From NCBI GenBank assembly GCA_951406725.2, contig OX597824.1, positions 39,742,001 to 39,806,000 on the forward strand: DNA of 64,000 bases, read 5' to 3'. Below, one piece after another: positions 18,160 to 55,001 of this stretch. The notes beneath the pieces are model-generated. The model saw only the letters and a list, made by a program, of their open reading frames with translations. It made no database searches and was not told where the DNA came from. The position numbers and the translations under genes were made by a program. Numbering within the stretch: position 1 is the first letter of the stretch; each line of letters opens with the position of its first letter. This DNA is from Octopus vulgaris (lineage: Eukaryota).

Positions 18160-18690
18160 ATTGCTACATTTCAGGATGGTTATTTTTTATATTTATACCT
18201 TTTGCCAAATAAACACACGCAATATATATATATATATTGCGTCCTTTTTAACTTATTTATTACTGTTCTTATTTTAAATGGTGTCCATTGTTCGCAAATC
18301 TTTCGTCACACATCTGTGACCGCTTCCGTGACATTTTCCGTTCTCCTATATACTGCTGCTTCGTTCAGCCCATTCTGTCTTTCTATGTGTGTGTGAGTGT
18401 GTGCGCGCGCGTGCGAGTATGCCATACACAGAAGCACACACACAGATACAGACGCAAACGCATCATAGGACTAAGCGGAGCAGGATCACACACGAAGATG
18501 GAAAGTGTCGCTGAAGAGGTAACAGATGTGTGACGAAAGATTTCCAGAAAATGGGCATTAGTTAGAATAAAAACAGTAATAAACGAATGAAAACCCCATA
18601 TATAGTGCACGTGTTTATTTGGCAAAAAAAATGAAATATAACACTATGTTTCACCACAGGGTTTCACATCAGGAATCTTGCAACATAAAT
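18160..18690. mobile_element. Fold-back element (head-to-head inverted pLTR-like arms) with hammerhead motifs
   Basis: Arms about 18199-18371 and 18468-18627 are reverse complements; ORFs 18202+ and 18383- translate to similar strings. TA-rich flanks. Confidence 0.7.
18508..18547 (+). ncRNA. Hammerhead motif (right arm); degenerate mirror copy on minus strand at 18292-18331
   Basis: tcg-CTGAAGA-G-GTAACA(gatg)TGTGAC-GAAA-GATT-TC-cag. The mirror copy has a perfect stem II GTCACA/TGTGAC but a mutated CUGA box. AATAAA signals lie downstream. Confidence 0.62.
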
Positions 18691-18698
18691 TCATAAAC

Positions 18699-18741
<43 letters not shown>

Positions 18742-18770
18742 AATAGGTAGCAAGGTTGCCCGGGTATCAA

Positions 18771-18858
18771 TGAATTACTGCTGTTTCAAGCGGCTCCATT
18801 TAATTAATCAATGTAAACATTAACGTCAGTTTGAAAGAAACCGCTCTCCTCAGATTCA
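18771..18858 (-). ncRNA. Hammerhead ribozyme motif, intact core, extended stem II
   Basis: Minus strand: TGAAT-CTGAGGA-GAGCGG...CCGCTT-GAAA-CAGCAG-TA-ATTCA. 5-bp stem I (UGAAU/AUUCA), about 59-nt stem II, GUA site. Confidence 0.75.
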
Positions 18859-19060
18859 GACGACCATATAGATTTCCAATATAAAGAATGGACCATTTTT
18901 TAGCACAATTTACATTAGCATTAGAAACCAAAACTCATACATTGCTTCCCTGCTACAAGCATATCAAAAGAAAGCAATGCAAGTGTTTTAGTTTTTAGTA
19001 CTGATTAAATTGTACTAAAAAATGGGTTATCCTTTATATTGGAAACTTATATGATCGTCT

Positions 19061-19144
19061 ACGTCTGAAGAGAGCAGTCTCCTTTAAACTGATGCAATGT
19101 TTGCATTGATCGATTAAATGGACCCGCTTGAATTTCCCGTCAGG
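19061..19144 (+). ncRNA. Degenerate hammerhead motif (mirror arm)
   Basis: CTGAAGA-GAGCAG...CCGCTT-GAAT-TTCCC-GTC; GAAA is mutated to GAAT. Confidence 0.55.
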
Positions 19145-19289
19145 AATCAAAGAAATTTTATCTTCGAAAACTGCATGATGATTATCATCGATAGTCAAAG
19201 AACAGCAGTATAAAATTGGGCAGTTGAGAAAATTAAAGTCAATCGCACATGTTCTTTGGATTCCCCAAAAGCATAAGGTCGCTGTTTCA

Positions 19290-20070
19290 TCTTTTGGGCC
19301 GTTGAAGGGTGATGATTGTACTCCGCATAGTGGTGCAGAAGACATGGTTGAGATTCTGCAGAAGCAATACAGCTCCACTTTCAACAATCTCAGTGTGGTT
19401 AATCCTGACAGCATCGGTGAAGCAAACCCGCAGCACACATCTGATATCATAGCACCTCGGGTATCCAAACAGGTATTAGCAAAATTACAAACAAATGAGC
19501 TGAAGGCGCCGTCAGATTATCCGCTAGAGTCCTGAAGTAGTGCCGTCATCAACTGGCATTCCCTTTGGCTATTTTCTGGAGGAAATCACTGGCCGCTGGC
19601 CATATTCCTGAAAATTTCAGGTCCCAGACGATTGTCCGAGCTTCCGAAAAGGGCAACAAATCTTTGACAGTGAATTACCGACCGATCTTACTTATCTCTC
19701 ATATTATTTGGGAGAGTGGTGAGAACACAAGTTACTTACTTTCTGTAATGTGTCAGCACATTTATTCCCAAACAGCATAGATTCCGCAGTAGCAGGGACT
19801 ACCTTACGCAGCTCTGCATCTTTTTGATGACATCCTAAAGGCTCTGGGCGAGGGCTAAAATGCAAATATCATTTATCTCATCTTCAGCAAGGCCTTCGAC
19901 AAGGCTGATCATAGGAGCTTATTAAAGAAATTATCGAACACTGGTGTCCGAGGTAAACAATTAAATTGGATTAATTTTTTCCTGGAGAACAGAATCCCGC
20001 ATATGGTGATCCATGGTGTTCGATCAAACTCGGCAAGAGTCATCAGTAGAGTTCTGTCAATTTCCAAGTA
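19290..20070 (+). pseudogene. Decayed CR1/L2-group LINE reverse transcriptase fragment
   Basis: NYRPILLISHII (about 19673-19710) and ANIIYLIFSKAFDKADH (about 19862-19912) match the RT motifs of the 44526-45785 ORF. Multiple stops and frameshifts. Confidence 0.8.
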
Positions 20071-20072
20071 AA

Positions 20073-20455
20073 CTTATCTTCGCCTTCTTGATGCGTGTTT
20101 TTGTGTTGTCTCTCTCTTCTTTCTTTTTCTCTTTTCAAAAAAGATATTTCTTCCTGCGTTCACTATTTTCCTCTCGTTTTGGTCTAACGAGCTCCATGTT
20201 TGCCTCGTTCGGTAACCTTGTATATAACAACTGTCAAGTTTTTGTTCCCTAGATTTTATTTTAGGATTTATGAGAGCAACTGTCTTTGAAGACTTATATT
20301 GTCCTTGAATGCTCGAAATGGGGAGTGGATAGAGAGCCGAAAACTGATGAAGGGTCCTTTCTCTGTTTTTACTTGTCCAGTTTTCTTTTTTGTCGTTGTT
20401 TGCGTATTTCATGTTATTTGCACCGTTGGTAACGTCCTGTTCCCATATATGCATA
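20073..20455 (+). mobile_element. T-rich pLTR-like repeat remnant ending at a TA microsatellite
   Basis: Shares the layout GAAA...CTGATGAAGGG..., T-rich tail and gtcctgt terminus with the minus-strand element at 37982-38210. Confidence 0.45.
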
Positions 20456-21806: not shown

Positions 21807-21864
<58 letters not shown>

Positions 21865-21869
<5 letters not shown>

Positions 21870-21945
21870 GAGGTTTAGTAAAAGTGTAGCAAAGTAAATG
21901 GCAGTGGTCCTGCATGGCCACAGTCCTTTGACTGAAACTTAACAG

Positions 21946-22023
<78 letters not shown>

Positions 22024-22185
22024 ATATATACATAAATATATACATATATATACATATATACATACATACATATATATACATATATACATACATACATATA
22101 TATACATATATACATACATACATATATATATGTATATATATATATATGTATGTATGTATATATGTATATATATGTATATATGTAT

Positions 22186-22264
<79 letters not shown>

Positions 22265-22345
22265 CTGTTAAGTTTCAGTCAAAGGACTGTGGCCATGCAG
22301 GACCACTGCCATTTACTTTGCTACACTTTTACTAAACCTCCTCTG
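21865..22345. repeat. Perfect inverted duplication of about 84 bp flanking a TA-rich microsatellite
   Basis: 21865-21948 is the exact reverse complement of 22262-22345. Confidence 0.9.
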
Positions 22346-22620
22346 ATATGCGACATTTAGTGGAAGAGGCAGTTTGACGTCGCTGCCCACATCTGTGTTT
22401 CTGGTCTTGAGGTAAGTTCATCCGGAACTGTTGACAAAAGGAGATCCAGTTTTTGTTTTGAAAAAGCCTGCATCCACGCCATGCAGGTCTCTCGAGCTTT
22501 GTGAGAAAATATTGAGGAGCTGTGGACCTTTGAACCCAAGATTTTGCAGCATCTAGTCTTGTATTCTGATGGCAATGTTGCGATATTTTGTCACTATGCA
22601 GTGGCGTTCCGTCTTACTGT
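22262..22620 (-). mobile_element. 3' end of a CR1/L2-group LINE
   Basis: KLDLLLSTVPDE matches KLDLFLSRVPD at the end of ORF 44526-45785, followed by the same style of 3' tail (gcatggccacagtc...gactgaaac). Confidence 0.8.
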
Positions 22621-25274: not shown

Positions 25275-25508
25275 TAGGGTAATAAGAAATTATTATTACC
25301 AGTGGCCTAGCACAAAAAAACGAATTAGTCATTAGACTATATATTATTCACATAGAAATACAATAAGAGGCTTCCAAATATGAAAGCTTTGTGCTAGAAA
25401 GAGCAGTAGAAAACTCATGTCACCAAATTTATCCTTATTTGGTGGTTTGAGTTTTCTACTGCTCTTTCTAGCACAAGGCTTTCCTATTTGGAAGCCTTTC
25501 ATTGTATT

Positions 25509-25510
<2 letters not shown>
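25275..25510. mobile_element. Short fold-back of the 3' terminus of the 28.2-kb pLTR-like family
   Basis: Arms 25357-25428 and 25437-25508 are near-perfect reverse complements. The left extension (taccagtggcctag...tagtc.atagactatatatt) matches 28186-28235. Confidence 0.7.
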
Positions 25511-25554
<44 letters not shown>

Positions 25555-28110: not shown

Positions 28111-28380
28111 CTCCTCCATACATATATGTATATGTATATATATATAATAAATATCAGGGTATGAAAAACTTTTAGGCATTTTTTACTACCAGTGGCCTAA
28201 GCATGTAGAAAACTAGTCAATAGACTATATATTGTTCAAATAAATACAGTGTACATTTAAACACATAAGATGTAACCATCATAGGACACCTAGCACGCTA
28301 GAAGGAGTAGCCAAAATCCAAACCACTATTAGGGATAAATTTCGAAGGGAAGGAAAAATAAAAACATTTACCATCTATCT

Positions 28381-28450
28381 CCTGGACTATGGTTTCGAAC
28401 TCTAAATTAGCAAATAAAGTAATTTACTAGGCGGAGTTCTCTTCAGCAAG
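28381..28450 (-). ncRNA. Hammerhead ribozyme motif (left arm)
   Basis: Minus strand: CTTG-CTGAAGA-GAACTC..TAGTAAAT..ATTTGCTA..GAGTTC-GAAA-CCATAG-TC-CAGG. Confidence 0.78.
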
Positions 28451-28622
28451 GTCGCCAAGATTAACATATAATACGAGGCAATACAGTAAATGCTTCGTGC
28501 TTGTATATTATTTTTTTTTCAAATCCACCGCGCAAGCGCAGTATTTTTGTCGGCAGTAAATAAATATAATGCCGGCATTTCTTCCATTTATTGCCTCGTA
28601 TGTATATTTTAATCTTGGCGTC

Positions 28623-28692
28623 CCTGCTGAAGAGAGCTCCGCCTAGCAAATTAATTTATTTGCTAATTTAGAGTTCGAAACCATGGTCCAGG
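28623..28692 (+). ncRNA. Hammerhead ribozyme motif (right arm), best example in the window
   Basis: CCTG-CTGAAGA-GAGCTC-cgcc-TAGCAAAT(taattt)ATTTGCTA-attta-GAGTTC-GAAA-CCATGG-TC-CAGG. All core residues present; stem I CCUG/CAGG; palindromic ACCAUGGU; predicted GUC cut after 28688. Confidence 0.85.
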
Positions 28693-28893
28693 AGATAGAT
28701 GGTAAATGTTTTTATTTTTCATTCCCTTCGAAATTTATCCCTAATAGTGGTTTGGATTTTGGCTACTCCTTTTAGCATTCTATGTGTGCTATGATGGTCA
28801 CCTCTTATGTGTTTAAATGTACACTGTATTTATGTGTGTATGTGTGTGTGCGTGTGTGTGTGTCTGTGTGTGTATATGTGTGTGTGTGCGTGC

Positions 28894-35870: not shown

Positions 35871-35959
35871 TCTCTATATATTGGCCTGGACCAATCTTTG
35901 GTCGAAACATATCTAAGTTTATCTAAGTTTATATATATATATATTTATATGTTTTTATT

Positions 35960-36175
35960 TTCTCATTTCGCCCCTGTCGAATTTTATTCCTAATTTTGTG
36001 GTTATAGAACCTAGCTGTTCTTTCTAGCGTGTTGAATCCCACGAGTGGATTCCTCATGTGTTTAAATGTACACTGTATTTTATGACTAATACATAGTCTT
36101 TGGACTAAATTTTTACACGTTAGGCCACTGGAAATGAAAATTTTAATTAATTTCCATTTCCCTTTGATATGATTA
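35960..36175 (+). mobile_element. 3' terminus of the 28.2-kb pLTR-like family
   Basis: atgtgtttaaatgtacactgtattt...atagtct...taggccactgg matches the reverse complement of 28186-28266 and ends in TA repeats. Confidence 0.7.
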
Positions 36176-44369: not shown

Positions 44370-46025
44370 TTTTCTTTTTAGTTTCAGCTCAGAGCTGTGG
44401 TCATGCTGATGCACCGCCGTTTTGCTACTCTCTTATTACTAAGAGCCTCCTCTAATATGTGGCACTTGGTGAAGAATAGAGGTTGATATAGCTACTCTCA
44501 TTTGCACCTCTAGACGTCCGGTAGGCTAATCTGGGACTCTCGACAGAAAGAGGTCCAGCTTTGATTTAAAAACCCTTAGATTTACTTTGTGCAAGTTCCT
44601 CAGACTCTTTGGGAGAATATTAAAAAGCTGTGGGCCCTTGAAATCCGGGCTGTTGCAGTAACTGGTCATGGAGCGTGATGGCATTGCTGGGATCTTTTGC
44701 ACTATGCAGTGTCGTCCCATTCTGGCATTGATGTAACTTTCAATGCCAAAATTTGGCACAATTCTTTCCAGGATCTTCCAGATATATATTGCTGCATACC
44801 TCTCCCGTCTTCTCTCCAAGGAGTAGAGTCTTAGCTGTTTCAACCTTTCCCAGTAGCTGAGCCGTTGCAAAGAGACGATCTTCTTTGTGAATCTTCTCTG
44901 GATTGCTTCAAGGTCCGTTGTTAATTTCACACTGGTGGGTGACCACAGCTGTGAGCAGTAATCCAGGCGACTGATGACGAATGTCCGCCAGAGGACCATC
45001 ATGGTTTCCTTATCTCTGGTTCTGAATGTTCTTAGGATCCACCCAGCCAGTCGTCTGCACTTTGTCGCCATCCTGGTATTGTGCACTTGGAAAGAGGTTT
45101 CATCACACATGTCGATACCCAGATCCCTCACTGACTTAGGCTCTGGGATTGAAATTCCCTGTGGACCGGTGTACCCTGTAAGTTTCATATTCAGTTTTGG
45201 ATGCTGGTAGCGCAGAGCCTGGAATTCTTCAGCATTAAACTGCATATTATTATCCTCAGCCCATCTGTAGATTGAGTCCAACTCCTGCTGCAGGTGTGTA
45301 ACATCGCTGGGGTTCCGTATTTTCTGTGAGACTTTCGTATCATCTGCATAGCTTGCCAGAGTGGCTATCTGGGCATTTGAGGGCATATCTGAGAGGGTCA
45401 CTATAAAAAGCAGTGATCCCAAGGCAGTGCCCTGTAGAACACCACTCACTATTTGTGTGTTCATAGAGGTGGCTCCATTAGCCACTATTGCCTGACTCCT
45501 ATTTTCCAGGAAGTCATGTAACCACACTCCAAGTTTTCCAGCTATGCCAAGGTCACGCAGTTTGTGGCATATCATACCATGATCCACCTTGTCAAAAGCT
45601 TTTGCAAAATCAAGGTATATTATATCCCCATTTGATTTGTTGAGTAACTGCCTCAATATCCAGTCATAATGTTGTAAGAGCTGGGTCCGGCAGCTCCTAT
45701 CTGGTCGAAAATCATACTGGGTATCACTCAGCAAGTTATTTTCCTCAAGGAATGCGATTAGTTTCCTTCTGACTATCCGTTCCATAACTTTGCTGATGTG
45801 TGAAGTCAGAGAGATAGGCTTATAGTTTTTGGCATCTACTTCCGCCTTTATGTATTGGGCATATTATTCCCTTCTTCAGCTTGCTTGGCAGTTTGTCATT
45901 TGTAAGAAAGCTCTGGAAGAGAATCTTGAGGGGTTTTACCAGGGCATGCTTACACGATTTGAGGAGGATTGCTGGGAAACCATCAGGACCAGCGGCTGAG
46001 TTTGTGTCCACTTCATCTATGGCTA
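44370..46025 (-). mobile_element. 5'-truncated CR1/L2-group LINE with RT domain and 3' tail
   Basis: RT ORF plus upstream frame (AAGPDGFPAILLK..IICPIHKGG) joined by a frameshift near 45830. 3' UTR ends ggcggtgcatcagcatgaccacagctctgagctgaaac followed by an A-rich tail. Confidence 0.92.
44526..45785 (-). pseudogene. LINE reverse transcriptase domain (419-aa open remnant)
   Basis: YLDFAKAFDKVDH, SGVLQGTALGSLLF, YADD, RDLGI, LDYCSQLWSP, LYSLERRRERY. The endonuclease part is missing. Confidence 0.92.
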
Positions 46026-48071: not shown

Positions 48072-48587
48072 TAATAAAGGGTTAATTGCAACAAGTTGCT
48101 CAAAACCACATACCGAAAATATTAGAAATAGCAGCCAAATAGGTCACTATTTCTACTACTAGAAAAAATAAGTCTCCACAAACAAACAGAATTTGTAACC
48201 CGTATATGGTAAAGAGAAAGAAGACAACGAAATCCCAGCCTATTGGATTAATTATGGACGAATTCGTTTCTGGTCCTTTGTTTCGTTGGTACTGTTTTTG
48301 TAACTCACGTGGTGATTTTGGAGAGAGACATGAATTCGCCTGTGGAGATGCTGGCATACCGTTATATCGTTCGATGTCGCCTGGTCGAGTTGATGTAATG
48401 GGTGAGTTTTTTTCCTAGCATTTCTAGATTTATAGGAAATATTATGTTGACAAGGAAATGAACTTTCGATTCTAATCCAGAAACGAATTCGTCCATAATG
48501 AATCCAATAGGCTGGGATTTCGTTGTCTTCTTTCTCTTTACCATATACGGGTAACAAATTCTGTTTGTTTGTGGAGACTTATTTTTA

Positions 48588-53728: not shown

Positions 53729-55001
53729 TTCTAGTTCGGAAAATACTTTGTAACTGAACAATCAATATTCGCTTATTTCAGTGTATAATTCGTTATATTA
53801 AACTATCGTATGTCCAAATTTGGCCAAATGCGTGTTTTTTCTTTTTTTTTTTTTTTCAACATTTAATTCTGCTTGCAATAGCCGGTTATTTTGGTCAAAC
53901 TATCGTATCTCCTGCTAATTCAGATGCCAAAATATGAAAATTGTCAAAGTGTAGTACAACAGCTTAGAATTTTTCAAAAATATAAGTCCCACATACGACA
54001 GTTTTGCAAATAAATTTCTGACTGAAAATATCATACATGCATGGAGTTACGATTTCATGCACCCAACAAAGTATGATTGTTAAGCTGAAACTGTTGCTAA
54101 TGTAAAAAAGAAATGGAATGGTGAAACTATTTTTTCGTTTTCTGAAAAAGTAACGTTTTAGACTTTCGACACTTTTGCATAATAGCAACGAATTGTAATA
54201 AAACTGCAACGAGATCCAGCGAGAACATAAACCATGTCGCAACCTCTTGTCATAGTTGCTTACGTTATCTTTTATTCCACAACGGTCATAATTATATCGT
54301 TCTGCTAGATTACCCATGAAGTGCTTATATTTTAGAAAGAAAGAATCACTCGAAGTAGCAATTTCTAGTTCGGAAAATACTTTGTAACTGAACAATCAAT
54401 ATTCGCTTATTTCAGTGTATAATTCGTTATATTAAACTATCGTATGTCCAAATTTGGCCAAATGCGTGTTTTTTTTTTTTGTTTTTTTTTTCAACATTTA
54501 ATTCTACTTGCAATAGCCGGTTATTTTGGTCAAACTATCGTATCTCCTGCTAATTCAGATGCCAAAATATGAAAATTGTCAAAGTGTAGTACAACAGCTT
54601 AGAATTTTTCAAAAATATAAGTCCCACATACGACAGTTTTGCAAATAAATTTCTGACTGAAAATATCATACATGCATGGAGTTACGATTTCATGCACCCA
54701 ACAAAGTATGATTGTTAAGCTGAAACTGTTGCTAATGTAAAAAAGAAATGGAATGGTGAAACTATTTTTTCGTTTTCTGAAAAAGTAACGTTTTAGACTT
54801 TCGACACTTTTGCATAATAGCAACGAATTGTAATAAAACTGCAACGAGATCCAGCGAGAACATAAACCATGTCGCAACCTCTTGTCATAGTTGCTTACGT
54901 TATCTTTTATTCCACAACGGTCATAATTATATCGTTCTGCTAGATTACCCATGAAGTGCTTATATTTTAGAAAGAAAGAATCACTCGAAGTAGCAATTTC
55001 T
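53729..55001 (+). repeat. Recent tandem duplication, unit about 635 bp
   Basis: 53729-54362 and 54363-55001 are nearly identical (ORFs 53964- and 54599- share an identical translation); TTCT microhomology at the junction. Confidence 0.93.

Follow-up and report, generated by a model that had tools for sequence, protein, structure and literature searches.

The locus described here raises the question of whether a tight foldback with hammerhead-like motifs on both strands is a hairpin element in its own right or the joint of two copies of something else. It lies in a window of 64,000 nucleotides from Octopus vulgaris (the whole stretch of DNA that was analysed), in which AT-rich animal sequence abundant in microsatellites is interspersed with LINE fragments. 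We consider it likely that a single high-copy repeat is present at the locus in two copies, both old, truncated at the 5' end and lying head to head, that this repeat forms the 3' terminus (pLTR) of a Penelope-like element (PLE), and that it carries a type I hammerhead with a 59-nt stem II for which cleavage is predicted only in the dimer.

The left copy contains a complete type I hammerhead motif on the minus strand (18771..18858), which was read base by base and also matched with a descriptor. From 18858 to 18771 it comprises, in order, the 5' strand of stem I (18854..18858, forming 5 bp with 18775-18771; pair probabilities 0.48-0.60 in context), the core CUGAGGA (18847..18853, recovered by the descriptor and in the family contigs), the 59 nt of stem II, a segment at 18776..18787 made of GAAA (18787-18784), a 2-bp stem III with loop AGCA (C-AGCA-G) and GUA, and finally the 3' strand of stem I, with cleavage predicted from the sequence 3' of 18776. 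The elements CUGANGA, GAAA and NUH thus follow one another in the left copy as they do in the family majority, and each base of the minus-strand hammerhead first noticed here (5-bp stem I, CUGAGGA, GAAA, GUA) was verified. The descriptor permits up to 90 nt in stem II and was drawn up after the motif had been seen; as a control for chance, 100 block-wise dinucleotide shuffles of the window were scanned with it. It finds four cores in the window (1756 plus, 18853 minus, 28446 minus and 28627 plus) where the shuffles yield 0.06 on average and never more than 1, and in its strict version the left-copy motif is the sole match in the window, with 0/100 in the shuffles. The left-copy hammerhead motif exceeds chance expectation. 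The folding energy of the isolated motif is unremarkable (z -1.2; 23 of 200 shuffles were equally good), and the hammerhead fold, when forced in context, lies 4.3 kcal/mol above the minimum. Rfam models recover no hammerhead family among 36 matches to the locus at E<=10, nor among the 150 listed of 203 matches to the whole window.

The foldback itself is pronounced. Its arms (18785-18947 and 18972-19132) are 81.4% alike over 161 columns and separated by a 24-nt spacer, and the predicted fold reaches -164.6 kcal/mol (z -18.3). Six sequencing runs contain at least half of the words sampled from the window; of the runs listed, three may be its own source and none is catalogued as RNA. Contigs from four sequencing runs were aligned to 18742-19200 at 80% likeness, giving 571, 640, 3 and 486 aligned contigs per run. 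The summed depth, which is not a copy number, reaches a maximum of 65,972 over the hammerhead (X1) and drops to 25.7 at the hairpin centre; we infer a family of hundreds to low thousands of copies. No further copies were found within the window. Depth declines steadily toward the 5' side and the junction, as expected of 5'-truncated retroposition, and family coverage is confined to about 200 nt. The upstream part of the left copy (18859..18947, minus) is accordingly placed by family depth as 5'-truncated at the junction, and the spacer (18948..18971, plus) is likely, from contig depth, a stretch by which the right copy extends further 5' than the left, one paralogous contig each in X2 and X11 aligning from about 18950. 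Pieces with zero differences span the junction in three of the four runs (X1, X2 and X10, of which X2 is possibly the window's own source), and the junction is therefore not an assembly artefact. What the preliminary description called a tight 350-nt hairpin element is thus a real hairpin and not a repeated unit, because its junction is single-copy while its arms are high-copy.

The same data bear on the proposal that the 350-nt hairpin is one unit, either a MITE/foldback or a rod of viroid-like kind that carries a ribozyme in each polarity. The great stability of the fold and the hammerhead cores on both strands speak for it; we nevertheless hold it to be very improbable, given that the arms are plain duplicates joined at a single-copy junction and that the right ribozyme is incomplete. 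Of 162 aligned columns, 30 differ between the arms (25 transitions, 5 transversions), and the mismatches that would be G-U-compatible number 11 on the plus and 14 on the minus strand; this lack of RNA-strand bias gives no sign of selection for a long RNA rod. The single-copy junction and the missing bias together largely rule out a MITE or a viroid-like ambisense unit, and a reading of the DNA as bacterial was likewise rejected. The hairpin itself is ordinary.

The right copy (18972..19132, plus) retains CUGAAGA (19065-19071), a 58-nt stem II (19072-19129) and GAA (19130-19132), and then ends. Arm homology stops at 19132, directly after GAA, where 39, 41 and 30 contigs with loose ends in three runs go on with A-C-GGCC-GUA, which corresponds to a normal stem III, GUA and stem I. 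The window enters instead a decayed LINE fragment outside the element (19133..20059, plus; tblastn and translations): tblastn with the window's RVT_1 ORF matches 19673-20059 at E 2e-13, and 19133-19670 appears, as judged from its translations, to be LINE too. Since homology ends after GAA, the family continues otherwise and the window passes into the decayed LINE, the right copy is truncated and has no cleavage site. CUGAAGA and stem II of the supposed mirror hammerhead are present, whereas its GAAU and its different stem I and stem III dissolve into a copy cut off after GAA with LINE-like DNA behind. A search of the window did not recover the missing tail of the right copy (35 for the best non-self match vs 86).

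On its other side the locus carries the traits on which its assignment turns. The left copy extends into a 46-nt 3' tail (18739..18784, minus) that has no counterpart in the right arm according to the arm alignment and is covered by family contigs, and its 3' end adjoins a (TA)n microsatellite (18704..18738), the likely insertion target in view of the sequence and of a (TA)n preference that the supplement of PMC8557442 gives for PLE families of Hydra and for numerous Naiad families. The element thus reaches down to 18739 and ends at 19132, so that the bounds first given (18771..19144) missed the tail on the left and overshot the end on the right. A known form of PLE insertion is the inverted copy that is truncated 5' and extended on one side by a tail of 30-40 bp (PMC8557442; PMC3846280), and a one-sided tail has been attributed to two reverse transcription start sites, the enzyme cutting and extending both strands (PMC11167929). 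The locus shares with these inverted-pLTR insertions (Craig 2021, PMC8557442; PMC3846280; Frangieh 2024, PMC11167929) the head-to-head 5'-truncated copies, the tail on one end only and a (TA)n flank as likely target; it differs in that the tail, at 46 nt, exceeds the described length and overlaps the 3' half of the ribozyme, and in being known from fragments without a parent ORF. The one-sided tail could equally have arisen from LINE damage that truncated the right copy. No clear target-site duplication was seen; a direct repeat at 18662/19133 (14/16 identical) is not adjacent to the element on the left and lies within the end of a neighbouring element. The assignment to PLEs is put forward as probable, no RT/GIY-YIG reading frame for the family having been found in the window; a YIG-containing frame upstream of the core matched no Pfam family and was set aside as a chance occurrence.

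Comparable arrangements are found elsewhere in the window. Alignment covered four additional foldbacks of the head-to-head kind, two of them with hammerhead-like cores facing outward. Hammerhead-bearing pairs of PLE-like form lie at 28237-28836 and 18187-18641, and at 28.5k and 25.4k non-microsatellite sequence extends past the left arm alone. The pair at 28237-28836 is younger (92% over 274 columns) and belongs to a different family, with a full type I hammerhead in both arms and a 43-nt stem II closed by G-C; its plus copy retains a palindromic loop III with a self-duplex of -11.4 kcal/mol, and none of its eight Rfam matches is a hammerhead. This pair is a better candidate for cleavage assays than the 18771 locus. 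The pair at 18187-18641, which adjoins the locus, is an older inverted pair (75%) with a decayed hammerhead-like core with short stem II at about 18512-18545 on the plus strand. The 25.4k 3' end is a foldback with a one-sided tail, and belongs to three related 3' ends with a common terminal motif (25290-25528, 28180-28370 and 35946-36140).

The absence of a reading frame, the very high copy number and the coverage of about 200 nt would also suit a non-autonomous hammerhead repeat (a non-LTR retrozyme or a SINE-like sequence) that uses PLE machinery and is not the pLTR of a coding PLE. Non-LTR retrozymes (PMC7229834; bioRxiv 10.64898/2026.07.22.740005) are likewise non-coding animal repeats with type I hammerheads, and the latter source proposes that they derive from pLTRs. 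They are, however, described as direct tandems, about 300 bp in length, whose loops I and II make canonical contacts, whereas here an inverted pair of fragments is present, the locus is without a direct tandem and no go-back joint occurs among the 15 joints listed. As PLE insertions show this 5' fall-off in depth and this inverted form, we regard such a repeat as unlikely and retain the PLE 3' end.

Within the PLE reading it can be asked whether both arms stem from one RNA. Variants were taken from a table of which 40 of 70 rows were listed, none of them right of 19095; 36 rows were mapped onto the structure, with 18898, 18984, 18990 and 18991 omitted. The stem I pair 18856/18773 is A-U in the left copy and C-G in 86-91% of the family depth at both places, a two-sided change relative to the family majority that preserves pairing. 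This pair bears on the possibility that the arms of the same element class come from two RNA templates (sister subfamilies), through one double-primed event or a later insertion into the first copy, in which case part of the 19% divergence would predate the insertion. The left arm alone has A-U, C(-G) being found in about 88% of the family depth and in the 5' strand of the right arm, and a double change by chance is, by our estimate, unlikely because both changes are transversions and the arm differences run at 25 transitions to 5 transversions; moreover, PLEs tend to land in or beside existing copies (PMC6765202). On the other hand, the arms have common non-majority letters at 18817/19100, 18829/19089 and 18880/19038, and the non-majority shares of 10-14% at the two stem I places may be independent of each other. 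Private departures from the family majority number 8 in the left and 7 in the right arm among the rows listed, as for decay from one template, and agree with the earlier view that the inversion is old. Two templates are therefore a serious possibility, and one template is somewhat the better supported; the two-template version is nested within the preferred explanation, and the confidences given to the readings do not add up to certainty.

Stem II (18788..18846, minus) is built from a 10-bp closing helix, a weak middle, a distal helix and a 4-nt loop (18817-18814). The ten consecutive pairs of the closing helix have probabilities of 0.93-1.0; the first, G10.1-U11.1 at the stem's base, is non-standard, the usual pair being G10.1-C11.1. 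The middle is unpaired in the predicted fold of the left copy, and two of the four positions of the apical loop vary in the family. No variant falls in the nine closing pairs of the left arm among the 40 of 70 rows listed, so that the GAGCGG/CCGCUU helix, whose loss from the family consensus had been named as grounds for abandoning the proposal, is kept; at position 19076 in stem II of the right arm, the contigs aligned there have A, which breaks the helix, more often than G. When the two arms are compared as two sequences, two-sided changes are seen in 0 of 16 stem II pairs, and the family data consist of pooled letter shares only. The proposal of a PLE-type hammerhead with a stem II of about 60 nt is supported, at a measured 59 nt.

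The departures from the standard form suggest a further possibility, namely that the hammerhead is a vestige which U4C, the G-U pair closing stem II and the long insertion have left unable to cleave, its hairpin being kept for another use or for none. At core position U4 (18852), 20-25% of the family depth carries C, within a CpG, which represents either a non-canonical subfamily or an ancestral state. PLE hammerheads cleave weakly, and cleavage is dispensable for PAc insertion in vitro (PMC4209133; PMC11167929). Against this, the family majority has core, stem I and palindromic loop III intact together: the majority loop III is the palindrome GGCC (87-97% at its two variant places, 18779 and 18782), giving the 8-nt palindrome typical of dimer-type hammerheads, whereas AGCA of the left copy is not palindromic and has a self-duplex of merely -2.3 kcal/mol. 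Pairing in stem I survives the two-sided change, G-U likewise closes stem II in a PLE hammerhead of the coelacanth (PMC4209133, Fig. S3), and in the second family, at 28237-28836, a flawless core accompanies the 43-nt stem II. A vestige is accordingly doubtful, and a family majority predicted to cleave remains the preferred reading.

Comparison with described hammerheads shows where the locus stands. Those of metazoan PLEs (Cervera and De la Pena 2014, PMC4209133) share with it the type I form, a stem I of 3-5 bp, a very short stem III, a palindromic loop, dispersed high-copy families and opposite-strand pairs, dual minimal hammerheads 100-700 bp apart having been known since 2014. They differ in stem II, for which the minimal descriptor of that study allows 3-7 bp and a 3-10 nt loop, thus no more than 24 nt separating the core halves against 59 nt here; none of the motifs in the alignment of its Fig. 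S3 (56 according to the legend) has a long stem II, and the present motif is further set apart by having no extra nucleotide after CUGANGA and by its G-U closing pair. The core spacer used in PMC8557442 is 7-17 nt, and viral type I hammerheads termed long in PMC13725137 have 6-8 bp. With these limits and the lack of a hammerhead match in Rfam, the expectation that a long stem II escapes standard descriptors is borne out. In the literature covered, a scope outside which most supplements, Lunse 2017 and Arkhipova 2017 fall, no extended stem II is reported for a PLE hammerhead of metazoans. Partial precedent exists in spike-moss PLE-X1 (Craig 2021, File S2, PMC8557442), a PLE hammerhead with a long stem II region (9 bp and a 35-nt loop in PLE-X1_sMoe) that is flagged there as deviating from the canonical form; these elements are, however, from a plant, endonuclease-less and rDNA-targeted, with the motif near the 5' end, and they are listed with a large loop, not an extended helix, and without a dimer-type palindrome. 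What is new about the locus is confined to its long stem II. Four motifs of the family gave no relevant matches to the published Naiad, Chlamys and Hydra consensi covered (Craig 2021), in a comparison that motifs spanning line ends would escape; in metagenome contigs the family pattern had one match, which lies inside a bacterial coding frame and is unrelated.

A more generic long-stem-II pattern had four viral matches (one identical sequence) and seven prokaryotic ones. None of the 11 has a stem I of at least 4 bp directly at the site (1/11 has 3 bp) and none matches an Rfam hammerhead. Three prokaryotic contigs contain hammerhead-like cores with stem II regions of 38-45 nt and no Rfam match (L009 301-364, L010 301-359 and L011 301-357); judging by these cores they may be real prokaryotic hammerheads, and in L009 pairing with the 5' flank could create a pseudoknot.

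How the element might operate can be outlined from related systems. In an active element, the two hammerheads of a tandem transcript would pair through their palindromic loops III (ACGGCCGU) into a stable stem III, and this pairing across the dimer would permit the cut after GUA (PMC6765202; PMC4209133). Being directed away from the core, the long stem II would be tolerated; it is probably a selected hairpin and may serve to bind the element's protein. The RT-endonuclease of the element would then nick AT-rich DNA and copy the RNA in from both sides (PMC6765202; PMC4209133), leaving two short inverted cDNAs, one with the tail and one without, and the loop III palindrome of the left copy would have been lost in later decay. 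This locus is likely inactive, because loop III of the left copy is non-palindromic, the right copy lacks a cleavage site and a transcript reading through both would pair one arm with the other.

A bolder extension, to which we give rather little credence, is that long-stem-II hammerheads form a hidden class of active animal PLE ribozymes in which stem II doubles as the binding and initiation hairpin of the RT-endonuclease. It is suggested by the tail-less copy, which stops exactly at the base of stem II (GAA), and by two unrelated families with a long stem II (59 and 43 nt) in one 64-kb window. If true, it would account for PLE clades reported without hammerheads or with mere half cores 35-50 nt apart, the latter being described for eight Naiads (PMC8557442). 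By eye, the end of Naiad_Ovul has a hairpin and GAAAC-CAUA-GU like the 28.5k family, without a canonical CUGANGA before it, and nothing similar was seen at the ends of Naiad_Esco, Adux and Skow-1 in the same published set. Should the family cleave, a ribozyme form that numbers at least in the hundreds per genome would be invisible to Rfam and to published PLE descriptors, and counts of animal hammerheads and statements that a clade lacks hammerheads would therefore need rechecking. The conserved 59-nt arm would also offer a direct test of the purpose of PLE hammerheads, in that it can be shortened and the effects on cleavage and on RT binding followed separately.

Several other features of the window were noted. 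A textbook minimal type I hammerhead with a short stem II (GAAACGUU) is found at 1752-1786. At 20260-20330 a decayed hammerhead-like motif combines a degenerate core, a GAGCA/UGCUC-closed region of about 43 nt and GAAA, possibly marking a third long-stem-II family; it sits in a repeat (about 20036-20440) that interrupts the LINE. An open LINE reverse-transcriptase frame of 445 aa lies at 44526-45863 on the minus strand (RVT_1, E 7e-23). The near-perfect inverted repeats at 21861-22349 (87 bp at 100%) and 48164-48586 (110 bp at 98%) enclose microsatellite-rich or unique middles and represent recent insertions or assembly artefacts, and a near-perfect 635-bp tandem duplication (53729-55001, 99.4%) is either recent or an assembly artefact.
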